Source: a candidate division KSB3 bacterium (lineage in GTDB: Bacteria > Moduliflexota > Moduliflexia > Moduliflexales > Moduliflexaceae). Taken from it: 64,000 nt of DNA. The position numbers and the translations under genes are program-made. Below the pieces are notes generated by a model that saw only the letters and a program-made list of their open reading frames with translations, did not search any database and was not told the DNA's origin. Of this stretch, positions 3,039 to 62,415 are shown in pieces. The stretch spans positions 9,066 through 73,065 of the forward strand of contig PDSJ01000029.1 of assembly GCA_002748425.1 (NCBI GenBank), given 5' to 3'. Positions within the stretch are counted from its first letter, which is position 1. Each line of letters begins with the position of its first letter.

Positions 3039-3698
3039 CTAAGAATTCAGCGTCATTCTCGCTTTTAAAGCAGCAAGTTCCTGATCCAGTTCTCCTTCTT
3101 CAGGGCCCAGCGCCTCACATTGCTGTACCAACGATTCCCCCTGCAGCTCCTCCTGCGCAGCGGTGATCGTTTCAGTCTCCAGCAATTTCGACTCGAACGT
3201 TTCAAAGACCTGATTCCCGGACAAATCATTCAGCATCTGCTGTAAACGCTTCTGGGTTTCAGCCCGCTTCAGGCGTGTCAGCAGCATACGCTTCTTGCGC
3301 CGGGCGCTTTCAATGCGATCACGCAGATCATGAAATGTCCTTTTCAATCGTTCGGCAATCTGCTGCTGCTGTTCCCATTGCGGCTGGAGCTGCTGCGTAT
3401 AAGCCAGAGCTTCCCGCCTGCGCTTCAATGCCGCACGCGCCAGCTCATCCTTTCCCTCTTTCACAGCCAACATAGCGTTCTGATCCCACCGTTCAGCCTC
3501 GTTCTGATATTTCTCAAGCTGGAATTTCAGTTTTTTTTCCTCAGCAATAACGCTAACGGCATCTCCCCGGAGCTGATTGACCTGCTTTTGCATATCTCTA
3601 ATTGACTGTTCCAGAACCTGTTCAGGACGTTCAAACCTGTCGATCCAGGCATTGACATGCGATGCAATCATTCGCCACAGTCTTGTGAAAATATTCAT
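3039..3698 (-). CDS. pspA: PspA/IM30 family membrane-stress protein
   Basis: MNIFTRLWRMIASHVNAWIDRFERPEQVLEQSIRDMQ... with long coiled-coil heptads, the classic PspA N-terminus. I moved the start to the ATG at 3698, which has a GAGGAA Shine-Dalgarno about 7 nt upstream; the track ORF starts at 3710. Confidence 0.85.
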   Translation of the reverse strand: MNIFTRLWRMIASHVNAWIDRFERPEQVLEQSIRDMQKQVNQLRGDAVSVIAEEKKLKFQLEKYQNEAERWDQNAMLAVKEGKDELARAALKRRREALAYTQQLQPQWEQQQQIAERLKRTFHDLRDRIESARRKKRMLLTRLKRAETQKRLQQMLNDLSGNQVFETFESKLLETETITAAQEELQGESLVQQCEALGPEEGELDQELAALKARMTLNS

Positions 3699-3739
3699 AA
3701 CATTCCTCATTCTTTCAAAACATACGTGCGGTCACGAAT

Positions 3740-3770
3740 AAAAAAAGCGGCGAGACAGATCCCCGCCGCC
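3740..3770 (-). terminator. Rho-independent terminator downstream of the NYN-domain gene
   Basis: On the minus strand, GCGGCGGGGAUCUGUCUCGCCGC is followed by UUUUUUU. It lies between the stop at 3806 and the pspA start. Confidence 0.55.
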
Positions 3771-3805
3771 ATCACCAGGCATGACATCACACACGCCGCC
3801 CATCA

Positions 3806-4780
3806 CTAATGCGCAGTATTTCCACTGTTGTTGTGGTGGCTATGATGATTATGGTGATGATTATACGCTGACATTAAACGACGCTGCGGACTTACGAGCT
3901 GCATTTTTTTGGCCTGCATGCCGCTTTCGTGTCCTTCGGCATCTGCGACCTCAAACTCAAAAATCAAACTCCGACTTGGAAGTTCAGAAAAGCTGACCTC
4001 TTCCGGCAACTGCGAATCATGGAAAAAGACACTGTAGTACGGGGAATCTTTCTGCCGCGAATCGATACGCCACAAGTCCGGGGCTATCGTTTTCATGGCT
4101 CGTAAAAAGCCGTAGCCCTTCGAAGAATGATTATAGCAGACTCCCCGCATTCGAGACCCGATACGGCCCCAGTGCGTTTTATTCACCGAGGGCCCAGTGG
4201 GCAGCAGATTAGGAATCAGATAGCCGGAAATAAACATGTCTGCTTCGCGCCTCAACTCTGCTGACACATTCTCAAAGGCGACAACTTCGACGCGGCAACC
4301 GCTATTCTGCAGGGCCTGCACGACTCTCACAAAATCGCCGTCGCCAGTCACCAGAACGACGCGATCCATGTTATTTGACTGCAGCAAGACATCGACGGCC
4401 ATATCCAGATCGGCGTTAGCTTTTCCAAATCGATTGCCGCTTTCGTCCACATACCACTTCACGTTTTTTTGAATAACTTTATATCCAAAATCCCTTAGCA
4501 ATGAGTAAAAACCGTACTGTCCATCTTTATACACATAATCGACTTCAGAACGGTCGCCGTCAAAACTGACGTACGCGTTCAGACGGATCGGTTCGGCATT
4601 ATCACGGCAGGCAAATTCTCTCAAGACATCATATCGCATCCCATAGCCGCCATTCATGGCAAGGTTTGCGACATCGACATACAATCCAACTCTACGACTG
4701 GCTCCTGACATAATATTTTTTGTTCTACACTCCATAGAATGCTCATAAACAGTTTTGCAAACGTTACTCAGACTCCGCAC
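3806..4780 (-). CDS. NYN (LabA/DUF88-like) ribonuclease domain fused to a cold-shock-like OB domain, with a His-rich C-terminal tail
   Basis: NYN motifs: GLYVDVANL ... ADLDMAVD ... VVLVTGDGDFVRVVQALQNSGCRVEVVAF. The C-terminal GVCYNHSSKGYGFL ... SVFFHDSQL resembles the CSD RNP1/RNP2 motifs. The tail is YNHHHNHHSHHNNSGNTAH. The start is uncertain: GTG at 4780 or ATG at 4711. Confidence 0.7.
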   Translation of the reverse strand: MRSLSNVCKTVYEHSMECRTKNIMSGASRRVGLYVDVANLAMNGGYGMRYDVLREFACRDNAEPIRLNAYVSFDGDRSEVDYVYKDGQYGFYSLLRDFGYKVIQKNVKWYVDESGNRFGKANADLDMAVDVLLQSNNMDRVVLVTGDGDFVRVVQALQNSGCRVEVVAFENVSAELRREADMFISGYLIPNLLPTGPSVNKTHWGRIGSRMRGVCYNHSSKGYGFLRAMKTIAPDLWRIDSRQKDSPYYSVFFHDSQLPEEVSFSELPSRSLIFEFEVADAEGHESGMQAKKMQLVSPQRRLMSAYNHHHNHHSHHNNSGNTAH

Positions 4781-5118: not shown

Positions 5119-7074
5119 ATGGAATCTCAAATCTTAATGATTGGTCATACACGTGATGAACTTCAACGGCTGTCAAAGATCCTCAGCAGTCAGGGCTGTA
5201 AGGTTCACACATCATCCGGCGGGCAAAGAGCGATTATGTCGGCCAGAACTCACGCAGTCGATTTGATATTACTGGATATTGCAATGCCGGGCCGAGGCGG
5301 CTATAAGCTGTGTTCGCGCCTAAAAGCGAACGTGCACACGAAAAATATTCCAGTTATTTTTCTAAGCGTATTCAACGACATCAGCAATATCGTACGAGCG
5401 TTTGACGTCGGAGGCGTTGATTATATCACCAGGCCCTTCCAGGACGAAGAGGTCGTGGCGCGTGTAAAAACGCATTTAGGCTTGGCGGCGGCCCAAAAAC
5501 GTCTGCAAGCGAAAAATGTGCGGCTCCAGCAGAAAAACCTTAAACATAAACGTAGCAAAAAAGCTCTCCAACACGCAAAAGAACGTGCAGAAGAGGCCAA
5601 TCAATCGAAAAGTGTTTTCCTCTCCAACATCAGCCACGAATTGCGATCCCCCCTCACTACGATTCTCGGATTTACGCAGGTTATGGATCGGAGCGCGTCT
5701 CTGCCTCCGGAGCACCGGGAGAACATAAGTGTGATCAAGCGGAGTGGTGAGCACCTGCTCGCCCTCATCAATCAGGTGCTCGATTTATCAAAAATTGAAG
5801 CGGGACGCATGGTCCTCACGGAAGATACTGTCGATCTCTACGGTCTGTTGCGTGATGTGAGAGACATGTTCACCCTGAACGCTGAGACAAAGGGGCTGCA
5901 ACTGCTGCTTGAACAAGAAAAAGCGTTACCGTCTTTTATTCATGCGGATGAGATGAAGCTTCGTCAAATTCTTATCAACCTGCTTCATAATGCCGTGAAA
6001 TTTACGAGTCAGGGGAGCGTTCAGTTGCATGTGAGCTGTAGCGGAGATGGAGAGCAGATGTCAGAGGATCGAATCCCAGAGCTTGACTATTGTGAGCTGA
6101 CATTCACTGTCAAGGACACCGGTCCCGGAATTTCCGCAGAGGACATGAAGCGGCTCTTTGACGTATTCGAACAAACAGAAAGCGGACGCCAAATCCGGGA
6201 AGGAAGCGGGCTGGGCTTATCCATAAGCCGCAAGTTTGCCCAAATGATGGGGGGCGATATTGAAATCGTCAGTGAAGTCGGCAAAGGGACATACTTTATG
6301 TTTCATATCCGGGTTCAGAGGTGTACCGACACAGCGACGACGCGGCATTGCAGCCGCCGCAAACGCTTTTTAGCAGCAGGGCAGCGGGATCGCAGTGGAA
6401 ATTGTTTTCGATTGCTCGTGGCAGACGACGAGAAGATGATCCGTCAGGTCCTTGTGAAAATGCTGGCACCTCTGGGCTGTGATATACGTGAGGCCGAAAA
6501 CGGGCAGCAAGCCATCGAGATCTGGAAGACCTGGCATCCGCACCTCATCTGGATGGATATGCGGATGCCGATCATGAACGGTTATGACGCGACAAAACAG
6601 ATTAAGCAACTGGAGCGGAACACTGCAAGCGATCCAGCTGCAGGTCATACCGGTTTTCCTGCGAAAATTATTGCTTTGACAGCCAGCAGCTTCGAGGAGG
6701 AACGGGCCGAGATTCTGGCAAACGGCTGCGATGACTATCTTCGAAAACCGTTTAAACGTTCCGACTTATTTGACTTACTGCATAAGCACCTCGACATGAA
6801 GTATGAGGAAGGGAACGTTGTCTCCTCCGATATTTCCTCAGCACATGATTTGCAGCACCGAGCGCATAGCAGCGTGTTGACGCCAGAAGCCCTGGCATTG
6901 CTGCCGTCTGATCTGACAGCAGCACTTCGACAGGGGGTCAAAGAAGCGAATATAACAGCGTTACTCGACCTCGTTCAACGTATTCGCCCACATCATGAGA
7001 ATGTTGCCGATATACTGACGCAGTTGCTAAAAGACTTTGATTACGAGACTCTCTCTCAATGGCTGAATATCTAA
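5119..7074 (+). CDS. Cytoplasmic hybrid sensor histidine kinase (REC - coiled coil - HisKA - HATPase_c - REC - C-terminal helical module)
   Basis: H-box FLSNISHELRSPLTTILG, N-box LLHNAVKFT, G1 DTGPGI, G2 GSGLGLSI. The second receiver is canonical: LLVADDE ... IWMDMRMP ... ALTAS ... LRKPF. There is no TM segment and no recognisable sensor domain. Confidence 0.85.
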   Translation: MESQILMIGHTRDELQRLSKILSSQGCKVHTSSGGQRAIMSARTHAVDLILLDIAMPGRGGYKLCSRLKANVHTKNIPVIFLSVFNDISNIVRAFDVGGVDYITRPFQDEEVVARVKTHLGLAAAQKRLQAKNVRLQQKNLKHKRSKKALQHAKERAEEANQSKSVFLSNISHELRSPLTTILGFTQVMDRSASLPPEHRENISVIKRSGEHLLALINQVLDLSKIEAGRMVLTEDTVDLYGLLRDVRDMFTLNAETKGLQLLLEQEKALPSFIHADEMKLRQILINLLHNAVKFTSQGSVQLHVSCSGDGEQMSEDRIPELDYCELTFTVKDTGPGISAEDMKRLFDVFEQTESGRQIREGSGLGLSISRKFAQMMGGDIEIVSEVGKGTYFMFHIRVQRCTDTATTRHCSRRKRFLAAGQRDRSGNCFRLLVADDEKMIRQVLVKMLAPLGCDIREAENGQQAIEIWKTWHPHLIWMDMRMPIMNGYDATKQIKQLERNTASDPAAGHTGFPAKIIALTASSFEEERAEILANGCDDYLRKPFKRSDLFDLLHKHLDMKYEEGNVVSSDISSAHDLQHRAHSSVLTPEALALLPSDLTAALRQGVKEANITALLDLVQRIRPHHENVADILTQLLKDFDYETLSQWLNI

Positions 7075-12789: not shown

Positions 12790-15700
12790 TCAAAAAAGTG
12801 CGAGCTGAGGATGTTCTCTCTGCCTTTTGAACGCGCCTTTCCCGTGTCGACTGCGAATTGCTTTCAGGGCATCTTCAATATCATTCAAAAAACGGGACGG
12901 CGGATTGTGGACGCTTTGCCCAAACAGGAAACGCTTTTTAGCGCGCATGAGAATCAACTTTTCCTGAGCACGGGTCATGCCGACATAGAAGAGTCGGCGC
13001 TCTTCTTCAAGATCAAGCTTTTTCCCGTCGCGCTGGTAGGGAAGGATCGTTTCTTCACAGCCGGTCATAAAGACAATTGGAAATTCTAATCCTTTGGAGG
13101 CATGCAATGTCATCAACGTCACCCGCTCGGCTCGTGGGTCATACTCATCAATTTCCTTGCGCAGGGCTGTTGTTTCCAGAAAATCCTGCAAGCGCGTTTC
13201 GAACGGCACAGCTCGGCGGAGCAGCGCTTTTATACGGTCTTCCTGTTTTGACGCAGCAGTAGCGACCCGCCGAGCCATACAAAATTCTGCAATCCGTCCG
13301 ACAAGATCTGCAACGCGCAACGAGCTGCAGATCGGTCTGAGCTCTTCTAAAAAGGCCCGTGTTTCCAAGGGATGCGCAACTTGGTCGTCATAAAAATCCG
13401 CATCAGGATTATGCAGCAGCCACAGGCAGGCGAGGATCTCGCGAATCTCGTTGTGCTCATAAAGCGACGCCTGGCCGACAATTTGACAGGGGATGCCGGA
13501 ACGCTGAAAGGCCTCAGACAAGGCATGACTTTGGGCTCCCAGACGATAGAGCACGGCAAAATCTCCAAAAGAACGTGTTTCGATCGTATCATCCTCCACA
13601 CGACCCGAATTCAGCGAAAACGAGCTGGTTCCGCCAAGCATTTTTTCGATTTCGTGCACTACGTACTCAGCCTCAGCTTTATAGGTTGGAGCCTCATAAA
13701 TCTCAACTCTGCTTCGGCTGACGATATCCGACCAGAGTTCCATGGCCTGCGGGTCAGAAGCGTGCGAGATGACTTGATGCGAAGCATTCAAGATAAGCTG
13801 GGTGGAACGGTAATTTCGTGTCAGGTGAAATGCGACCGCATCAGGGAAATCTTGTCGAAACTGCAGAAAATACTCTCGACTCGCGCCACGAAAGCCGTAA
13901 ATGGCCTGATCCGGATCGCCGATAACGCACAAACCCAGCGCCGGCCCTTTTAAGCGTTTTAATAATGTGTATTGGGCAGCGTTCAGGTCCTGGTACTCAT
14001 CGACAGAAATCCAGCGAAAGCGCTGCTGATACTCGCTGAGGATTTCGGGAAATGCTTCAAACAGCGTTACTACTGCGAGAATCAAGCCATCAAAATCAAG
14101 AAGCTGCCGTTCCTGCAACGCTCTCTCATACGCCTGATATGCAGCGAAAAAATCCTGATGCTTTTCTCTTGCCTGGGGAAGAAATTGATCGACAGCTTCT
14201 GTATCCCCTGCGTGTATCACACGATTTTTGAGGATCGAGATTCCATCAAGATACTGCGTCAGAAGCTTTTTTTTCAGATCCGGATACAATTGCTTGAGCA
14301 GACTGCGCCGGTCTCTGTCGCTGCAAATGCAGAAATTTTGTTTCACGCCGATCGCGTCGCCTCTTTCGCGGAGGACCATGGCACAAAAGGCATGAAAGGT
14401 CTTCACGAGAATCCGGGCCGCGATCCTGGGGCCGAGCAAGTCTTTCAGACGCGCGATCATTTCGTCCGCCGCTTTATTGCTGAAGGTCATGGCCAGCAGC
14501 TGTTCCGGGGCAGCAAGCTGTTCCTTCACAAGATAGGCCATGCGATGCGTCAGGGTGCGCGTCTTTCCGGTTCCCGGACCAGCGCTGATAATCAGCGTCG
14601 GAGCACTGCACAGCACTGCCTCACGCTGCTCAGGATTCAGAACAGCCAGAAGCTCCTCTGATCCCGCTTGAAGAACAGAGGGAGCGCTGTCTGTTTCTGC
14701 TGCAGAATCTGTTTCTTGAGCGTAAGCGTTCTTTTTCCGCGAGACCCCGTGTTCTTTGTTAAAAAGAGGAGGGACAGGCCGGGATGCCTGTCCGCTCGCA
14801 ACAGAAGCTGATACGCTTTTTTTTCTGCGGGACCTTTGTTTGCTTTGCAGTCCAGGCAGCAATCCTGTTTGCAAAGCGAAACTCTCCCGTTCCTGGGCCT
14901 CAAAGAGTCTGATCGCGCCGAATTCACCATCAAAGCCGCCCTCTGCAATCACCTCACCGCTGCGCATACGCCGAACACCTTCCGCCAGGAGCGCACCGCC
15001 GGCTTTTTCAAGAGCTTCCACCGGCAGATCCAGCAGAATTGCGAGTTCAGACCCTAACTGTGTGAGCAAGGCTTCATAGCTCTGCATAACCCGTTTGGAA
15101 GCCGGCCCGACACCGCAGCCTTCTGACAAAATTTCCACCAGTGGAATCAGGCGGTAAAACGGCGCAGCAGATTCAGGCATTGCCCCCTCAGGGCGATCCG
15201 CCAGAACTTCAACACGATGCGAGACACCGACAGTCACGGGCCTGCCACAAACGGGGCAGATACTCTTATGTTCGAGCGTGGTCTTCGGGTCCCAGCGGAT
15301 ACCGCATTTACGATGTCCGTCAAGATGATATTTTCCCTCTTCCGGAAAAAACTCAATCGTACCGAGAAAACGCTCAGAATTACTGGTCTTCAGTGCGTCG
15401 AAAATTGCGTGATATGACAATTCGGTATCGAACAGGTTCGCCTCACGAGCCAGCTTCTGAGCTGAATGTGCATCAGAGTTAGAGACAAGCGTATAGCGAT
15501 CCAGAGCTGAAATCCGCCAATTCATCGGCGGATCTGAAGAAAGGCCGGTTTCCAGCGCAAAAATGTGAGGCGTTAAATCTTCGAAACAGTCTTCGATGGC
15601 ATCAAATCCGGATTTCGAACCAAACAGCGAAAACCAGGGAGTCCAGATATGCGCAGGAATGAGATGAGCCTGCGGGTCGGTCTCTAAGACGATTTCCAGC

Positions 15701-16140
15701 AAGTCCCTGGCATCCAGGCCCAGAATCGGGCGCCCGTCGGAACGAATATTTCCGATTCTCTCCAGAGCGGCCTGAAATGTGCTGGCCGCTTCAAAAGAAG
15801 GGAGGAACACAATATTGTGATTTTTACGGGTCTTCCCATGCTTTTTGTAGATATTGCTGATCTCACCGGAAAGCATAAAACGCAGCGGCTGCCGGCACGC
15901 TTTACAGATTTCCGACTGCACAGCATCAGCATACTCTTTTTTAAGACAAAACAGGCCTGAGCCATCTGGTTCGAGCTTCTCCTGAATTTCCTCGAGCCAC
16001 CCAGGATGGCTGAGGTCACCGGTACCGATGACCTGAAGGCCTTTCAGCTGCGCCCATTTATACAAATTCTCAATAGTCAAGGCACGGCTTGTCGCGCGGG
16101 AATAACGGGAATGGATGTGAAAATCAGCAATAAATTTCAT
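12790..16140 (-). CDS. Fusion protein: N-terminal EndoQ-like PHP-domain endonuclease (about aa 1-430) plus C-terminal UvrD/PcrA-type SF1 helicase (about aa 500-1116)
   Basis: N-terminal part: FIADFHIHSRYS, GTGD, PAHIWTPWFSLFG, LETGLSSD, SNSDAHS, GKYHLDGH, and the zinc ribbon CPVCGRPVTVGVSHRVEVLADR. Helicase motifs: I AGPGTGKT, Ia TFHAF, II VDEYQD, III GDPDQAIYGFRGA, IV NYRS, V TLHASKGLEF, VI EERRLFYVGMTRA. Confidence 0.85.
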   Translation of the reverse strand: MKFIADFHIHSRYSRATSRALTIENLYKWAQLKGLQVIGTGDLSHPGWLEEIQEKLEPDGSGLFCLKKEYADAVQSEICKACRQPLRFMLSGEISNIYKKHGKTRKNHNIVFLPSFEAASTFQAALERIGNIRSDGRPILGLDARDLLEIVLETDPQAHLIPAHIWTPWFSLFGSKSGFDAIEDCFEDLTPHIFALETGLSSDPPMNWRISALDRYTLVSNSDAHSAQKLAREANLFDTELSYHAIFDALKTSNSERFLGTIEFFPEEGKYHLDGHRKCGIRWDPKTTLEHKSICPVCGRPVTVGVSHRVEVLADRPEGAMPESAAPFYRLIPLVEILSEGCGVGPASKRVMQSYEALLTQLGSELAILLDLPVEALEKAGGALLAEGVRRMRSGEVIAEGGFDGEFGAIRLFEAQERESFALQTGLLPGLQSKQRSRRKKSVSASVASGQASRPVPPLFNKEHGVSRKKNAYAQETDSAAETDSAPSVLQAGSEELLAVLNPEQREAVLCSAPTLIISAGPGTGKTRTLTHRMAYLVKEQLAAPEQLLAMTFSNKAADEMIARLKDLLGPRIAARILVKTFHAFCAMVLRERGDAIGVKQNFCICSDRDRRSLLKQLYPDLKKKLLTQYLDGISILKNRVIHAGDTEAVDQFLPQAREKHQDFFAAYQAYERALQERQLLDFDGLILAVVTLFEAFPEILSEYQQRFRWISVDEYQDLNAAQYTLLKRLKGPALGLCVIGDPDQAIYGFRGASREYFLQFRQDFPDAVAFHLTRNYRSTQLILNASHQVISHASDPQAMELWSDIVSRSRVEIYEAPTYKAEAEYVVHEIEKMLGGTSSFSLNSGRVEDDTIETRSFGDFAVLYRLGAQSHALSEAFQRSGIPCQIVGQASLYEHNEIREILACLWLLHNPDADFYDDQVAHPLETRAFLEELRPICSSLRVADLVGRIAEFCMARRVATAASKQEDRIKALLRRAVPFETRLQDFLETTALRKEIDEYDPRAERVTLMTLHASKGLEFPIVFMTGCEETILPYQRDGKKLDLEEERRLFYVGMTRAQEKLILMRAKKRFLFGQSVHNPPSRFLNDIEDALKAIRSRHGKGAFKRQREHPQLALF

Positions 16141-30040: not shown

Positions 30041-30069
30041 TTGACAAAATATACGAATATTCGTATATT
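30041..30069 (+). promoter_or_regulatory. Near-consensus sigma70-type promoter (TTGACA-17-TATATT) overlapped by a perfect 22-bp palindrome (candidate operator)
   Basis: TTGACA at 30041-30046, 17-nt spacer, TATATT at 30064-30069. The palindrome AATATACGAAT|ATTCGTATATT spans 30048-30069, covering the spacer and the -10. Confidence 0.55.
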
Positions 30070-30246
30070 CTAAATAATTTAATACACAAAGGCTGAAATT
30101 TTTCCGCACTTACGTATCCAGAGAGTATCATGCAGCGAAAGCTCATTGAGACCAGAGGTTACAAGCGGCAAGCACCATCGGAGATGATTGTCTGTACGCG
30201 TATATGACAAATTCTGAAAACTCTGGCACAGACAGATGGAGGAGAT

Positions 30247-30546
30247 ATGATTTCATTAACAGAAAGAGCACGCAACAAACTGAAAGAAATAGCCAATTCC
30301 GAAGACCACAGTCCAATGTGGGACATTGTGTTTATGGGCTTTGGCTGAGGCGGTCCGCGTATGCGACTGGTTCAGTCTCGCTCAAAAGATATCGAACACA
30401 CGGTTGAAGTAGAAGGCTACCGATTCAGAATTGAAAAAAATTTGCGTAAACTGCTGCCTCATTACGGCAGCCTGATCGTCGATTTCAGAGAATCGTTCTT
30501 TGGTGAAAATTTCACCATACGATTTGGCCGTCAGGAGTTCTGCTAA
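30247..30546 (+). CDS. HesB/IscA-like small protein with an in-frame UGA (candidate selenocysteine at codon 34), 99 aa
   Basis: ATG 30247 follows GGAGGAG. Translation: MISLTERARNKLKEIANSEDHSPMWDIVFMGFG-U-GGPRMRLVQSRSKDIEHTVEVEGYRFRIEKNLRKLLPHYGSLIVDFRESFFGENFTIRFGRQEFC. The TGA is at 30346-30348. The ORF track reports only the distal 61 aa (30361-30546). Confidence 0.7.
30363..30381 (+). promoter_or_regulatory. Candidate bacterial SECIS hairpin
   Basis: GCGACUG-GUU-CAGUC(U)CGC begins 14 nt 3' of the UGA. It has a G/U-rich apical loop and a bulged lower stem. Confidence 0.45.
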
Positions 30547-30653: not shown

Positions 30654-31226
30654 ATGCCAAAATTTTTATTCAGCATCATCACGATATGTGTCTTCCTTTC
30701 GGGCCAAATGTTTGCCGCTGAAAAGGACGCTTCGTCCGCTCCGGGTCCCCGCTGGTGTATCGCGACCCCGACGTTACGAATCAGGGCTTTGCCCTCGACT
30801 GACGGCGAAATTATCGATAAGATTCCTTACGGCGTTCAGGTCCATGTGCTTGGTGAGAGAAGCGAAGAGCAAACGATTGGCAGGAAAACAGGACGCTGGG
30901 TCGAGGTCCAGTTTCACGGTAAACACGGCTATGCCTTTGATGCATTTCTCAGCGAAAAAGAGCCTACCGTCACGATTAAAGGTATCGAAAAGAAAACTGC
31001 CGCACTTGTAAACAGCGTCAAACAGCAAGAGGACCATTGCAGCATTGAATTTGTCGATGCCGCAGGTACAACGTTTGTCGAAACAGCTCGTTCTGCTGAC
31101 GTTTGTCGCAGAGCCCTGCTCGGCAAACGGGTCAAGCTCCTGTACACACTGAATAAAGCGTGTACGCACAGTGATTCCTGCCCGAAAATTATACTCGATG
31201 ACCTGCAAGTTCTTCCGTTTCGCTAG
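30654..31226 (+). CDS. Secreted bacterial SH3 (SH3_3) domain protein
   Basis: Signal peptide MPKFLFSIITICVFLSGQMFAAE. SH3b-like segment LRIRALPSTDGEIIDKIPYGVQVHVLGE ... GRWVEVQFHGKHGYAFDAFL. Confidence 0.65.
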   Translation: MPKFLFSIITICVFLSGQMFAAEKDASSAPGPRWCIATPTLRIRALPSTDGEIIDKIPYGVQVHVLGERSEEQTIGRKTGRWVEVQFHGKHGYAFDAFLSEKEPTVTIKGIEKKTAALVNSVKQQEDHCSIEFVDAAGTTFVETARSADVCRRALLGKRVKLLYTLNKACTHSDSCPKIILDDLQVLPFR

Positions 31227-49380: not shown

Positions 49381-49941
49381 CTAAAAAAACGGAGGCGGAC
49401 AGGACAAATCCCCCTGTTCAAGTATAAGCGGGGGAATGCCGGGAGCAAGCGTTACCACATCTTCCCAAAAAATTGTAGGGATACTTGGACTCGCATAGCG
49501 AATAATCGGACCATCATCATAAAGACCGACGGCTTCGCTTTCGATCGTTCCCCGACGCAGAAGAAATGACTCCAGAATCTCGTTCTCCTCCAAACCAATC
49601 GAGACATACGCAGGGGCATTTGCCCGAAAAGCAATCGCAAACGTGTGTGGCTGCGGCGTGCCAGGACTTGCAGGGCTTTGGGGTCGATCCTCTTCCCCAT
49701 TCAACGTAATATAGGTCAGTAGATAATCACCGGCTTCAGGAATATTCATGCAGAATTCATGTTGGCCCTGGCTCCATTCGAACGCAGCAGACGCTGGTGT
49801 CCCTGCCAAAAACTTCGGCATTCGCAATGTCTCTGCAACAGGAGTGACCAACGCCGGTCTATCAGTCTCAAAGCGGCTGCATCCACTTCCCAGGAAGAGA
49901 AGGCACAGCAAACAGCCTATGATTTTGCCTCGTCTATTCAT
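49381..49941 (-). CDS. Hypothetical lipoprotein
   Basis: Lipobox in MNRRGKIIGCLLCLLFLGSGC. I recognise no other family signature. Confidence 0.5.
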   Translation of the reverse strand: MNRRGKIIGCLLCLLFLGSGCSRFETDRPALVTPVAETLRMPKFLAGTPASAAFEWSQGQHEFCMNIPEAGDYLLTYITLNGEEDRPQSPASPGTPQPHTFAIAFRANAPAYVSIGLEENEILESFLLRRGTIESEAVGLYDDGPIIRYASPSIPTIFWEDVVTLAPGIPPLILEQGDLSCPPPFF

Positions 49942-50204
49942 ACTGAGTCAGTCATTCTGCTTCCCATGATGAGTTCCTGATTCACACTTATACAGTAAGA
50001 GATTCTGTATAATAAGAAGCTCATAGATTTCCCTTTCAGGAGTCAAGAAAAATTTGAGAAAAACTTACCACACGCATGAGAGTTGACTTTTCTCAGAGCA
50101 GGGGCTGTCGAAAAGTTGGCGTAATTTTTCGACGGCGGTGGCCCTGAAAAACTGGACCATGTGTTAAGCTCTAAGTCAGACTCAAAATACAGGAGAAGCT
50201 CATA

Positions 50205-57464: not shown

Positions 57465-58007
57465 TCAACTGTTCTGAAGACGCCAACGCTTCATCTGCCG
57501 GAGATACATTTGCCGGATGTGTAATAACTCGCGATCGTAGCGTCCGGTTTTAAAATCCGGGAAGGTCCAGTGAAACGGTTGATAACGGCCTTTTTCATAG
57601 CGTCCCAGCAGATCCGCGTAAATGCCGTTAGCGATATAAATTTTCTGGCCTGCGCCTTTGGCCGATGCCAGCACGAGCTTATTGTGGTCCAGATATCCAG
57701 CATCGAGGTTGATGATCCGCTGCCCCTGCTGAGCCGTGGCATTCTCGATCTCGTTACAGCGTAACTTCATCCCGACCAGCTTTGTTGGCATCATAAGGGT
57801 TTCAAATGCCACAAGGCGTCGATAGAGAGGTGCTCCCATTTCCGGCTCATAATAATCGCTGATATCGAAGAGATGATCCTCTCCTTCAAAATCAAAGGCT
57901 CCCCAGCATTCCATCAAGGCGCGTTTTCCTTGTTCAAGGTCTTCAGGCCTCCGAAATAATATCGCCACAAAATATTTCAAGGCTTCAGGAGCAGACGTTC
58001 GGGCCAT
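57465..58007 (-). CDS. DUF4416-family protein (function unknown)
   Basis: Pattern FDISDYYEPEMG ... INLDAGYLDHNKLVLASAKG ... GIYADL ... FPDF, as I recall for DUF4416. Needs an HMM check. Confidence 0.6.
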   Translation of the reverse strand: MARTSAPEALKYFVAILFRRPEDLEQGKRALMECWGAFDFEGEDHLFDISDYYEPEMGAPLYRRLVAFETLMMPTKLVGMKLRCNEIENATAQQGQRIINLDAGYLDHNKLVLASAKGAGQKIYIANGIYADLLGRYEKGRYQPFHWTFPDFKTGRYDRELLHIRQMYLRQMKRWRLQNS

Positions 58008-58037
58008 AGTCTCAATGTCCTTTTCATGATATGACGG

Positions 58038-58883
58038 TTACAGCAACGACAGTGCCCGGGACATAATAGCGGCATCAATCCCTAAATTGAGGCTCACAAG
58101 AGCCTGGTCCTCAGCAGACGCAAGCTGTTCTTTCCGACTGCCGGCGGCATTGCGGATCCGTAAGGTGTTACCTTGCAGGTAATAATGCGCCCCCTGACAA
58201 TAGCGTGTCAGCACCGGGAAGGTCATCATTTCCCAGGCAAAAGACCGTTCCCAGGCTCTTCGAAAAGCTGGTCCGTCGACCGGGCTGATTTTATAGCTCA
58301 GGCGGAAACGGCGGCTGTTCTGACTCAGGGTATATAGTTCGACCTGTGTTCCCCCTGCTTCAGGGACAAGTTCAAAACGATTCACGCCGTTCGAGCACGT
58401 GACAGCTGCTGTTGTCGGGAGCGCGACAGGAGTCGTAATAAGATAGCCGGGATCCAGCAGAAGGAACTCTCCGGCTTGTGGGAACAGCAGGGCACAGTGC
58501 GTATCGCTGCCGTAACTCCGGTCTGCCAGAATAGGGAACGCGTCAAATTCAAAAGCGTTCAGCAGCGCGATGCACGTTGCGGTCAGGGAAAAACACGTGC
58601 CCCCGCAGCCATATCTCAGAAAGTCGTGCAACACTTCATCCGGCATCCGTTTGGCACTCACAGGGCTTAAAACCGAATCAGATTTGATAATCTTTGTCAG
58701 GTTTTCGTAGGGGATACTTGAAAATGCCGTACAGAGCTTTTTAAGGAGAAGGGTGCTACCAATACGAGAGGGCTCGATGGCAAAACGTTCTAAAAAATTC
58801 GATAAGAGCGCAGGGTTTTGGATCGAAAAATGTGGATCCGCGCATGACTTGTGACTAAAATACAGAGTAGTTTCTGACTGCAA
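58038..58883 (-). CDS. Arylamine N-acetyltransferase (NAT) family protein
   Basis: IPYENL, candidate catalytic Cys in GCGGTCFSL, His in THCALLF, and Asp in LLDPGY. The TTG start in the track is doubtful. Confidence 0.6.
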   Translation of the reverse strand: MQSETTLYFSHKSCADPHFSIQNPALLSNFLERFAIEPSRIGSTLLLKKLCTAFSSIPYENLTKIIKSDSVLSPVSAKRMPDEVLHDFLRYGCGGTCFSLTATCIALLNAFEFDAFPILADRSYGSDTHCALLFPQAGEFLLLDPGYLITTPVALPTTAAVTCSNGVNRFELVPEAGGTQVELYTLSQNSRRFRLSYKISPVDGPAFRRAWERSFAWEMMTFPVLTRYCQGAHYYLQGNTLRIRNAAGSRKEQLASAEDQALVSLNLGIDAAIMSRALSLL

Positions 58884-59052
58884 CCTTGAGCCCTCGTCAT
58901 CCCATGCAGACGACGTTCGGCACGCAGCCTTATCAACGTCGAGTCTATGAGAGCAAGCTCTTTGTTTTCCTCAAGAACACCTGTGAGGCAGCAACTGCTT
59001 GTTAAAAGAACGCATTTCAGAGCATGACAGCCTTGAGAGCAGTGCAGGAATG

Positions 59053-59150
59053 TGGCGGGGGCGCATCGGAATCGAACCGACCCAGGACAGTATTAATGCC
59101 CCACACTGGATTTGAAGTCCAGGAGCGTCACCAGACCGCTATCCACCCCC
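59053..59150 (-). tRNA. selC: tRNA-Sec (anticodon UCA), 98 nt including encoded CCA
   Basis: Reverse complement: GGGGGTGGATAGCGGTCTGGTGACGCTCCTGGACTTCAAATCCAGTGTGGGGCATTAATACTGTCCTGGGTCGGTTCGATTCCGATGCGCCCCCGCCA. The anticodon loop is CUUCAAA on a CUGGA/UCCAG stem. It has a long variable arm, a GGTTCGATTCC T-loop and an extended acceptor stem, and is collinear with E. coli selC. Confidence 0.9.
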
Positions 59151-59167
59151 ATCCTGTGACAGAAAAT

Positions 59168-59195
59168 ACCTTATGATTGTCTTAAAAAAAGTCAA
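59168..59195 (-). promoter_or_regulatory. Candidate promoter for selC
   Basis: Minus strand TTGACT (59195-59190), 16-nt spacer, TAAGGT (59173-59168), about 17 nt before the tRNA 5' end. The -10 is weak. Confidence 0.3.
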
Positions 59196-59370
59196 GCATT
59201 TTTTCCGATTCTTTAGTATTGAAATATTTTGCTCCTTGTAAAATCGTTGGATCGCCACTATGGAAAAAGTGAACTGAATTGTGTCATCGATTATTTATGG
59301 CCGTGCCGCATGAGTCTTGAGAGGGGAGCAGCTTCTCAAGGTCCATGTGAGACAGGGACAAGAAAGAGCT

Positions 59371-60900
59371 ATGCGATTTCATAGAAAATATGTTTTTGCG
59401 ATGTCGGCGCTTGCCTTTACACTATTCATCTCTTACGAGATGCCTCTCCTGGCTGAAAATCTCCCGGAGCCGGTTATGGGCGGCAAACTGGTCTATGCCA
59501 TACCGGGAAATCCGGATACGCTCGATCCCCAGATGACCTCCGGCACACTCACGTTCCAGTGCGTGAAAAGTGTGTATGATACGCTTGTCGAAGCCGATCA
59601 GCGCGGAAATATCATTCCGGCCTTAGCAGAGTCCTGGGATTTGTCGCAGGACGAACTCACGTTGAGCCTTCACTTACGGCAGGGAGTCAAATTCCATAAC
59701 GGCGACACCTTGACGGCAGCTGACGTTAAGGCGAGTTTCGAGCGTTTGTTGTCAGACGAGTCCAGATCTCCTCATAAGACGAAATTCGAGCTAATCAACG
59801 CGATTGAGATTCCTGATCATACTACGGTGCGATTGATTCTCAGCAGGCCGTACGCTCCTCTGTTGAGGAATCTGGCGGGCGGGGCAGCATCGATATTACC
59901 CAGAAGAGCGATTCAGGAAGGACACGAGTTCAGCACGCATCCCATCGGGACCGGTCCTTTTGTATTCAAAGAGTGGATCCGAGACGATCGAATCAGCTAT
60001 ACTAAATTTTCAGACTATTGGCAGAACGGCAGACCCTATCTGGATGAGCTGGAAATGAAGGTCGTCGTGGAACCAACCACACAGCTTATGGGCTTGAAAG
60101 TGGGAGAATTTGATAGTATCCATGTTGTCGAATCCCATACGGTTCCGCAGTTCGACAAGGATCCGACTATCAAACTGTTTATCCATCAAACAGCTCTGGC
60201 GCTCGTGCTTGCGATGAATCACGCCCGTCCGCCGCTGGAGACCCTGCTGGTCAGAAGAGCAATTGCTCATGCCATTGACCGTCGGGCATTGCTCGATATT
60301 GCCTATAACGGCGGCCGGACAATCGAAGCGTTCATCGATGCCAGCAGTCCCTATTTTCTCGACCAGCCGGAGGCATATTCCTACGATCCTCGCCAGGCTA
60401 AAGCTTTGCTCGCCGAATCAGGCTATGCTGACGGATTTGACATCACCCTGACACTGCCGCAGAATTATGCCCCTCATGTCAATGCCGGAAATATGGTGCA
60501 AAACATGTTGCAGCAGATCGGTATTCGGGCAAAAATCGAACTTGTGGATTGGCCGACGTGGATCGGACAGGTGTATTACGGGAAAAATTATGACATGACC
60601 ATCATCGGACATACCGGACATCTCGACCCGGACGGACGGCTTAGCGGAGAATTTGCCTATACCAACTACCATAATCCTGACATGCTCGATGCAATTCAAC
60701 AGGCCGCAGCGGCCTCTCGTCCGGAAGAGCGTACAAGTTTGTATGCGAAGATTCAGCGTATGATGACTGAAGATGCAATGATGGTATTTATCGGGACGCC
60801 GCAAGGGCTGCGCGGAATGCGCAGCAATGTCTACGGCTTTCGGATGAGCTATGCGCTGGACACACCGGATTTTCGGGAGACCTTTATCGTGAAAGAATAA
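59371..60900 (+). CDS. ABC transporter substrate-binding protein, family 5 (peptide/nickel type)
   Basis: Signal peptide MRFHRKYVFAMSALAFTLFISY. SBP_bac_5 features include LDPQ ... LVE ... G.I.PALAESW ... KFHNGD. Start at ATG 59371; the track ORF starts at 59317. Confidence 0.85.
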   Translation: MRFHRKYVFAMSALAFTLFISYEMPLLAENLPEPVMGGKLVYAIPGNPDTLDPQMTSGTLTFQCVKSVYDTLVEADQRGNIIPALAESWDLSQDELTLSLHLRQGVKFHNGDTLTAADVKASFERLLSDESRSPHKTKFELINAIEIPDHTTVRLILSRPYAPLLRNLAGGAASILPRRAIQEGHEFSTHPIGTGPFVFKEWIRDDRISYTKFSDYWQNGRPYLDELEMKVVVEPTTQLMGLKVGEFDSIHVVESHTVPQFDKDPTIKLFIHQTALALVLAMNHARPPLETLLVRRAIAHAIDRRALLDIAYNGGRTIEAFIDASSPYFLDQPEAYSYDPRQAKALLAESGYADGFDITLTLPQNYAPHVNAGNMVQNMLQQIGIRAKIELVDWPTWIGQVYYGKNYDMTIIGHTGHLDPDGRLSGEFAYTNYHNPDMLDAIQQAAAASRPEERTSLYAKIQRMMTEDAMMVFIGTPQGLRGMRSNVYGFRMSYALDTPDFRETFIVKE

Positions 60901-60967: not shown

Positions 60968-61981
60968 TTATCTGGTCATCAGCTCGGTCCAGGCCTTCAG
61001 CCAGCGATCGTAGTTCTGCTCGATCAGTTCCGGATCGATCGAGAGGAACTTGTCGCTTTTTGCGGCATATTCGAAACTCTGGGGTAATTCGACATCTGGA
61101 TTGACGGGAAAAACCCATTGGGTCAGGGGAATTTCCTGCTGGAAGTCTTCAGTCAGGATATAGTCGATAAATTTTTTCGCCAGTTCAGGATGTTGGGCGC
61201 CTTTCACAATCCCCATTCCCTCGATCTGGCGATAAAACCCTTCTTCCATCACGGCGGCACGATAGCGTGTGCTTTGCTCGACTTCGACATGGTAAGCCGG
61301 ACTTGTCGCATAACTCAACACAATCGGCGCCTCTCCGCTTGTAAACATGCCATACGCCGTATCCCAGCCCTTTGTCACCGTCAAAATCGACGGTTTTAAT
61401 TTTTCCCAGAAGTCCAGATAGCCGTCTTCACCGAAAGCCGCAATCGTCCAAAGCAAGAGGGATACACCTGGACTCGATGTGCGCGGATCTTCGAGAATCA
61501 CTTTCCCTTCCCAGCGGGCTTCAGTGAGTTCGGAAAGGCTTGAAGGTGGCGCATCAATTTTTTCAGTATCGTAGACGAAGGTGATATACCCATATTCAAA
61601 AGGGGTCAAATGTAAACTTGTGTCAAAGATCAGCTCTTCCGGAATGTTCGCAAGATGTTCAGAACGATATGGCTCCAGAATATCGAACTTCAGGGCTTTT
61701 GCCAGATAGTTATTGTCAATGCCGACAACGATGTCAGCCTGGGGATAATCTTTTTCCAGGATGACACGATTCAAGACCTGCCCTGCATCACCAACGGCGA
61801 TCAGCGTGACCTTGCAATTGTTCGCTTCTTCAAACTGCTGCATCGTGGCTTCCGCCAGTCCCCATGAAATAAAGCTGTCGTAGGCGTAGACCACTAAAGT
61901 TTCCTGTTCCTGGGCCGAGGCAAAAGAACCGCCTGGCACGAGGAGCGCACAAAGACTCAGAACGATAATGACATGTTGCAT
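60968..61981 (-). CDS. thiB: Thiamine/TPP ABC-transporter periplasmic binding protein (ThiB/TbpA-like)
   Basis: Signal peptide, then LVVYAYDSFISWGLA ... GDAGQVLNR ... DIVVGIDNNYL. It lies directly downstream of a TPP riboswitch, with a Shine-Dalgarno of AAGGAGGAA. Confidence 0.8.
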   Translation of the reverse strand: MQHVIIVLSLCALLVPGGSFASAQEQETLVVYAYDSFISWGLAEATMQQFEEANNCKVTLIAVGDAGQVLNRVILEKDYPQADIVVGIDNNYLAKALKFDILEPYRSEHLANIPEELIFDTSLHLTPFEYGYITFVYDTEKIDAPPSSLSELTEARWEGKVILEDPRTSSPGVSLLLWTIAAFGEDGYLDFWEKLKPSILTVTKGWDTAYGMFTSGEAPIVLSYATSPAYHVEVEQSTRYRAAVMEEGFYRQIEGMGIVKGAQHPELAKKFIDYILTEDFQQEIPLTQWVFPVNPDVELPQSFEYAAKSDKFLSIDPELIEQNYDRWLKAWTELMTR

Positions 61982-62220: not shown

Positions 62221-62261
62221 CATCAGCATGACACTCGACAACGCTCCTGTCGAGCCCAGAC

Positions 62262-62340
62262 TGTTTTTTCTCCCTACGCCGGTACGAACCGGATCAGGTT
62301 CGAAGGGTATTTTCTCAGCCTTCCTGGCACCCCTGAAAGT
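62262..62340 (-). promoter_or_regulatory. TPP (THI-box) riboswitch aptamer
   Basis: Minus strand CAGGGGUGCCAGGAAGGCUGAGAAAAUACCCUUCGAACCUGAUCCGGUUCGUACCGGCGUAGGGAG. It contains the conserved GGGGUGC, CUGAGA, ACCC..GAACCUGAUC.GG and GCGUAGGGA elements. Confidence 0.9.
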
Positions 62341-62415
62341 TTCTTTGGCACATGACCAAGTCTACTACAGAGTGTATCTTGCCGGATTTTGTCAATATAA
62401 AAGATTCAAAAATTA

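Follow-up and report, generated by a model that had tools for sequence, protein, structure and literature searches.

The SECIS of the E. coli fdhF type is a hairpin directly 3' of the UGA, within the open reading frame, with a small G-U loop roughly 20-25 nt from the UGA. More generally, the apical loop of a bacterial SECIS lies 16-37 nt after the UGA (PMC10778597), and a G is expected in this small loop (PMC1088965). Among the proteins made in this way, HesB-like selenoproteins appeared in the 2006 survey of bacterial selenoproteomes by Zhang et al. (PMC1794560), and a 2026 catalogue defines the class by the model TIGR01911 and the motif UxGP (PMC13188914). The gene described here encodes a candidate selenoprotein that resembles this class in its length (about 92-100 aa in the class), in its relationship to IscA/HesB, in a Sec-containing motif, U-x-G-P (U-G-G-P in this protein), at the position of the first conserved Cys, and in a SECIS-like element just downstream of the UGA within the ORF. 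It differs in belonging to a more divergent, separate clade, in which no Cys form was found among 1.84 billion representative proteins. The gene is very probably real, and a rather unremarkable new entry in a class that has been known since the 2000s.

We analyzed a stretch of 64,000 nt from a candidate division KSB3 bacterium, hereafter the window. An earlier note on this DNA had proposed that an in-frame UGA joins two short frames, and direct reading bears out the layout it gave: an ATG at 30247 behind a GGAGGAG ribosome-binding site, 33 sense codons, a TGA at 30346-30348, 65 further codons and a TAA at 30544-30546, with the TGA in the context F-M-G-F-G-[TGA]-G-G-P (Table 1). GGAGGA is kept at the equivalent spot in two relatives, L001 and L002. 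Upstream, a promoter candidate sits in the 308-nt gap that follows rimI; it stays a candidate because the promoter and terminator scan of this region returned no more sites than shuffled sequence. Our preferred reading, which we hold to be highly likely from the comparisons below, is that 30247-30546 is one gene whose UGA is recoded to selenocysteine (Sec), yielding a selenoprotein of the IscA/HesB type.

Table 1. Features of the candidate selenoprotein gene and of the tRNA-Sec gene, in window coordinates.
Feature	Coordinates	Strand	Basis
Candidate sigma-70-type promoter, TTGACA-17 nt-TATATT	30041-30069	+	consensus scan, 11/12 matches
Ribosome-binding site GGAGGAG	30238-30244	+	read directly
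Probable single gene of 99 codons, IscA/HesB-fold selenoprotein (M1...U34...C99, stop TAA)	30247-30546	+	translation, relatives, dN/dS, profile
In-frame UGA, proposed Sec codon, residue 34, motif G-F-G-U-G-G-P	30346-30348	+	TGA in 12/12 members
Bacterial SECIS-like hairpin (helix 30362-30368/30374-30380, apical loop GGUUC 30369-30373)	30362-30380	+	pair counts, RNAalifold
Cys99 codon TGC, final residue	30541-30543	+	Cys last in 11/12 members
tRNA-Sec gene, anticodon UCA	59053-59150	-	ARAGORN; Rfam RF01852, 69.9 bits (gathering score 47)

Automated annotation breaks this gene apart. The mechanical ORF list reports the distal 61 aa alone (30361-30546), as had been noted before; gene calls for assembly GCA_002747525.1 (contig PDPS01000037.1) give two ORFs of 33 aa and 61 aa; and an independent Logan assembly of run SRR6011892 is split again, into 33 aa, a 12-nt gap and 61 aa. 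That the Logan assembly has the identical split, and that TGA is found in 11 other members from unrelated samples, speaks against a sequencing or assembly error that wrote TGA for TGC or TGT. Nothing specific favors such an error apart from the assembly being apparently a draft in many pieces (37 contigs or more, going by the contig name), and we give it a negligible chance.

Relatives of the window protein proved to be few and mostly truncated in databases, as fragments of about 60 aa that begin right behind the UGA motif. Among 5.8 billion proteins, a word-indexed search found 61-aa distal fragments only, and the contigs encoding them have the geometry of the window: a short frame closed by TGA, then 12 nt, then the distal ORF. 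An exhaustive HMMER search with a distal-fragment profile against the 1.84 billion representative proteins gave 12 credible relatives, comprising 10 fragments of 48-64 aa and two full-length proteins with 'W' at the Sec position. Pattern scans of genomes and metagenomes added one new orthologue, L006. Two further sequences, L005 and L007, were rejected as orthologues, being LpxB-like proteins that share just the word FGCGGPRM. The clade is therefore rare, at about a dozen 50%-identity clusters among the 1.84 billion representatives. DNA was recovered for 12 distinct members, namely the window copy and 11 others whose proteins are 32-75% identical to it.

All 12 members carry TGA at the aligned codon, within the motif [F/Y]-G-U-G-G-P, and 11 of them end in a C-terminal Cys. 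The exception is L006 (1203-1493), which keeps the TGA and the hairpin described below and stops four codons early (...FGR-TAA), without the terminal Cys; the Sec/Cys pair is thus not universal. In L001, two tandem paralogues (5881-6186 and 6277-6582) each have their own TGA and hairpin. Nei-Gojobori dN/dS, calculated among the five closest copies, is 0.05-0.35 upstream of the TGA (35 codons) and 0.06-0.41 for the codons downstream of it, so that, by this measure, both pieces are under purifying selection within one frame.

These data bear directly on whether the gene is decaying after mutation of an original Cys (TGC/TGT) or Trp (TGG) codon to TGA. Such a pseudogene would account for the two fragments reported by gene callers, for weak HMM scores, and for a Gly to Arg change inside the window hairpin. 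It would not be expected to show TGA at one codon in 12/12 divergent members from independent samples, dN/dS of 0.05-0.41 across both sides, an intact start codon, ribosome-binding site and stop, or a downstream hairpin that covaries. Conservation of the TGA, together with low dN/dS on both of its sides, excludes pseudogene and sequencing error alike; on these sequence comparisons, the pseudogene reading is effectively refuted and we regard it as exceedingly improbable. The earlier note's preference for UGA-to-Sec recoding over a pseudogene is accordingly well supported.

A different way to read the same layout is as two small genes, a 33-aa peptide ending at the TGA and a 61-aa protein starting from ATG 30361, perhaps translationally coupled. 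In 10 of 12 members there is indeed an ATG 12 nt past the TGA, which gene callers take as the start. The Met of this internal start is nonetheless replaced in three members, by ATC in L008, TTA in L010 and Leu in P0019, and the presence of Ile or Leu where the second gene would have to begin argues against two independent genes. The 12-nt spacer, GGCGGUCCGCGU, has no clear Shine-Dalgarno sequence. Furthermore, the best-conserved motif, GFG-U-GGP, straddles the TGA, and the two pieces jointly form one predicted IscA-fold domain, with a profile match spanning residues 2-97 and a structural model at pTM 0.79 (both below). We consider two separate genes very unlikely.

The region 3' of the TGA holds a hairpin that is conserved across the clade, which the earlier note had named as the place to look for structure. 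We aligned 45 nt from the TGA in the 12 members, without gaps. Helix columns 18-24 with 28-34 are paired in 91.7% of cells, and four of the seven pairs have changed on both sides. Of 500 shuffles, none came up to the alignment on four of five measures and one did so on the fifth (pairs changed on both sides), a control that overstates the significance because the twelve sequences are related. Sliding the helix partner by 1-3 columns drops pairing to 18-62%. RNAalifold independently recovered the same helix, pairing columns 17-23 with 29-35 around a 5-nt loop, G-G-U-N-N.

The GGU of the apical loop is invariant across members, and its first G, which is the third base of Leu+7, is G in 12/12, whereas the wobble bases of Gly+2 and Pro+3, in the spacer, are free to vary (entropy 1.78 bits). 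Part of the compensation has required coordinated amino-acid changes: Gly-Ser (GGA...UCC) has become Asp-Ile (GAU...AUC) in L016, and L017 has GGG...CCU. The hairpin begins 13 nt past the UGA and its loop 20 nt past the UGA; both the loop distance and the G in a small loop agree with what has been published for bacterial SECIS elements. It departs from the fdhF-type SECIS in having no evident conserved bulged U, a helix of just 7-8 bp and an unrelated sequence.

The window copy is one of the weaker examples. It has a C.U mismatch (30364/30378) and a non-synonymous Gly to Arg change within the hairpin, and at -4.9 kcal/mol it is the second weakest of twelve, most members lying at -8 to -12. Folded as a single sequence, the 60 nt after the UGA are no more stable than shuffles (z = -0.28); that the hairpin is more than chance follows from the comparison with relatives, not from the window sequence alone. 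The earlier note had placed a hairpin at 30363-30381. A hairpin is indeed there, while the conserved helix is the one in Table 1 and the register first given is a window-specific alternative with a 2-nt bulge. The minimum-energy single-sequence structure, which includes the UGA itself, was rejected: it is not conserved, since the Gly+2 wobble base that it pairs takes all four bases among members. A search of Rfam at a permissive threshold gave no SECIS family, with chance snoRNA and lncRNA matches only.

A dedicated tRNA-Sec gene lies 28.7 kb from the selenoprotein gene in the same window, found by both ARAGORN and Rfam and in agreement with the 29 kb noted previously. It does not adjoin selA, selB or selD; around it (57465-60900) are genes for an ABC substrate-binding protein and a fused TRAP permease, and two ORFs of 180 and 281 aa without an NCBIfam match. 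None of the 30 largest window ORFs scanned with NCBIfam is selA, selB or selD. TGA ends 13 of the 48 long ORFs of the window and occurs 0 times internally in their 18,028 codons; as an ordinary stop that is never internal in long ORFs, it shows that the genetic code of the window is standard and that the TGA at 30346 is a gene-specific exception. We also scanned TAA/TAG-delimited window frames containing TGA for other selenoproteins. The two likeliest candidates, a lipoprotein (49381-50064, minus strand) and a PspA-like protein (3039-3839, minus strand), were rejected, as each has an ordinary start after the TGA.

The UGA might also be read through without Sec: TGA could be reassigned, to Trp (code 4) or Gly (code 25), or the hairpin could help a near-cognate tRNA to insert Trp, Cys or Arg. 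Database entries P0012, P0018 and P0019 do show W at this position, and dependence on SelB is something that we infer for this gene. These W residues are, however, TGA translated under code 4 on short contigs, and the stop usage described above leaves no sign of reassignment in the window. The dedicated tRNA-Sec, the SECIS-like distance and G-containing loop of the hairpin, and the position itself, that of a metal-ligand Cys for which Sec is a chemically equivalent replacement, all count against readthrough of this kind, for which we see only a slim chance. As a database artefact, the Sec codon appears as Trp ('GFGWGGP') in L008 (39-335), L009 (164-460), L010 (1218-1508) and P0019.

HMM scans of the window protein, with U written as C, place it near the HesB-type selenoproteins at low score. 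The sole meaningful NCBIfam matches are NF038090 (IscA_HesB_Se; 36.4 bits, E = 5e-9, cut-off 85), TIGR01911 (HesB_rel_seleno; 27.4 bits, E = 3.8e-6, cut-off 66.35) and TIGR00049 (22.1 bits, E = 1.3e-4, cut-off 58.8), and Pfam PF01521 (Fe-S_biosyn) gave no match at E <= 1. The model search proposed in the earlier note therefore yields matches to three NCBIfam models, all far below their cut-offs, and none to PF01521. Residues 5-91 of the protein align to positions 7-91 of 92 in TIGR01911, nearly the whole model, and residues 1-92 to positions 1-89 of 101 in NF038090. Across the clade, NF038090 and TIGR01911 match 12/12 members and TIGR00049 matches 11/12, with NF038090 the best model for all 12; the best member E-values are 5.4e-10 for NF038090 and 2.3e-8 for TIGR01911. 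Judged by these scores, the clade is divergent and covered by no current HMM, because the window protein fails the score thresholds of both dedicated models.

Profile comparison connects the family to IscA-type structures. Searched against the PDB, a profile of the 12 members matched HI1723 (2apn, E = 4.6e-4) and AQ_1857 (1nwb, E = 1.1e-3), with the Sec column falling on the Cys of G-G-C-S-G, the first ligand, in both. This alignment corroborates the earlier proposal that the TGA occupies the first conserved Cys position of HesB/IscA proteins. A narrow 4-member profile found nothing relevant among PDB sequences, and the IscA-type structures were reached by the 12-member profile only. In a joint alignment that includes the Cys forms described below and a sequence taken as E. 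coli IscA, the columns of Sec/Cys and of the terminal Cys coincide throughout; the latter is invariant and falls on the C-terminal Cys motif. Comparing the family with that single IscA sequence by hhalign was not significant (probability 0.8%, E = 0.071), with the Cys/Sec columns again coinciding, and we give this comparison no weight.

Structure prediction gave the same family. We modelled P0012, a clade member with 36% identity to the window protein, writing Trp for Sec, and AlphaFold2 returned a model with pLDDT 87.5 and pTM 0.79. Foldseek matched this model to 1x0g (IscA with a [2Fe-2S] cluster), 2apn, 2d2a (SufA), 1nwb, and 1r94 and 1s98 (both E. coli IscA), each at probability 1.00 and with TM scores of 0.56-0.67, about 0.65 for 1x0g, 2d2a and 1r94. 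This confident model predicts that the family has the fold of the A-type Fe-S carriers (IscA/HesB/SufA). Relative to the A-type carriers IscA, SufA and ErpA (PF01521, TIGR00049), the modelled clade member has the fold in common and the Sec of the clade falls on the first ligand Cys. It differs in having Sec in place of that Cys, a single terminal Cys in place of C-x-C, and two potential ligands per chain instead of three. The window protein itself has Sec at the first ligand position, a single C-terminal Cys and no third Cys, short of the full three-Cys set, and Cys99 is the probable partner of Sec34.

The Cys forms that we found lie outside the clade. The earlier note had suggested aligning orthologues at this codon in search of TGA or Cys; beside the 12 members with TGA, a profile search of a large database surfaced the relative P0022, which reads G-F-G-C-G-G-P with a real TGC codon and carries a precomputed PF01521 match. 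P0022 passes TIGR00049 (68.7 against a cut-off of 58.8) and reaches 57.9 with NF038090, below the cut-off of 85. It does not have the family hairpin: 4 of 7 pairs are broken and there is no GGU loop. The proteins closest to it, 'iron-sulfur cluster assembly accessory proteins', come from Desulfitobacterium, Desulfosporosinus and Peptococcaceae. Together with P0028 (Desulfitobacterium dichloroeliminans) and P0031 (Desulfosporosinus), these Firmicute Cys forms have G-F-G-x-G-G-P in common with the window protein and align with it over the full length, at 26-34% identity over the domain. Unlike it, they have the TGC codon, a long Cys/Gly-rich C-terminal tail, TIGR00049 scores above the cut-off, and no family hairpin.

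Under the recoding reading, the ribosome would meet the UGA at codon 34 while the hairpin 13 nt downstream offers its small GGU-containing apical loop 20 nt past the UGA. Acting as a bacterial SECIS, the hairpin would recruit SelB carrying Sec-tRNA(Sec), the latter presumably supplied by the tRNA-Sec gene at 59053-59150. With Sec inserted, translation would run on to the TAA and yield the 99-residue product. In that product, Sec34 would replace the first cluster-ligating Cys, and Cys99 would replace the first Cys of the C-terminal Cys motif.

What the protein does can be predicted only in outline. The modelled fold and the alignment of ligand positions point, more loosely, to metal or Fe-S chemistry. 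With only Sec34 and Cys99 in each chain, a dimer could supply four ligands for a [2Fe-2S] cluster, and the most likely biochemistry is a homodimer that uses its two Sec and two Cys to bind, for transfer, either iron or a [2Fe-2S] cluster. The Sec/Cys pair might instead cycle through a selenenylsulfide with thioredoxin-type partners. The clade appears always to have Sec, and its three-Cys site is cut down to one Sec and a terminal Cys; it may comprise selenenylsulfide redox proteins or selenium/sulfur-transfer proteins that are no longer Fe-S carriers, a possibility that we rate as unlikely. Genes for a thioredoxin directly upstream in L010 (659-970) and L017 (667-987), and for pyridine-nucleotide disulfide oxidoreductases (Pyr_redox_2/Pyr_redox_dim) upstream in L011 (684-2099) and L013 (540-1964), are hints in that direction. 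A rubrerythrin gene is also found near the gene in L011.

Gene neighborhoods are mixed overall. In L001 and L002 (1-9200), the gene lies within an Mrp/Mbh/Nuo-like membrane-complex cluster (MnhB, NuoK-like and NuoH-like genes, then NuoB/C/D-like genes). Nuo-type neighbors may link the family to the maturation of Fe-S subunits of such complexes. The Cys form P0022 (L018, 3998-5146) is encoded just upstream of a NuoE-like 2Fe-2S_thioredx gene. In the window, the neighbors of the selenoprotein gene are rimI and an SH3_3-domain gene. The SH3_3-domain gene is located downstream in the window (30654-31226, plus strand), in L001 (9418-9987) and in L002 (9104-9664), and in L001 and L002 three Nuo-like genes stand between it and the selenoprotein gene.

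HesB-like selenoproteins are already catalogued, and the finding changes no current view of selenoprotein biology and would not surprise a specialist. Its practical weight lies in annotation. Deposited calls split what is very probably a real selenoprotein gene into 33 aa and 61 aa. The two NCBI models dedicated to HesB-type selenoproteins would miss it, since all of the clade stays far short of their cut-offs. With a new model made from the alignment of the 12 members, annotation of the clade would be put right everywhere and the Sec-as-Trp artefact would disappear. The clade also adds a probable case in which Sec, apparently never replaced by Cys, occupies a metal-ligand site in the fold of an Fe-S carrier; with 99 residues, one Sec and one Cys, the protein would be a compact test system for the function of HesB-like selenoproteins.

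The remainder of the window is housekeeping chromosome, with genes for RecA, EF-G, GlyRS, AlaRS, MreB, PilT, TrkAH, a 2-oxoacid dehydrogenase complex and TRAP transporters. The gene for the substrate-binding protein of a thiamine ABC transporter (60968-61981, minus strand) is directly preceded by a TPP riboswitch (62254-62344, minus strand; RF00059, 72.1 bits). In an ORF of 1116 aa (12790-16140, minus strand), a TIGR00375-family domain at the N-terminus (residues 5-410) is fused to a PcrA/UvrD-type helicase (residues 497-915).
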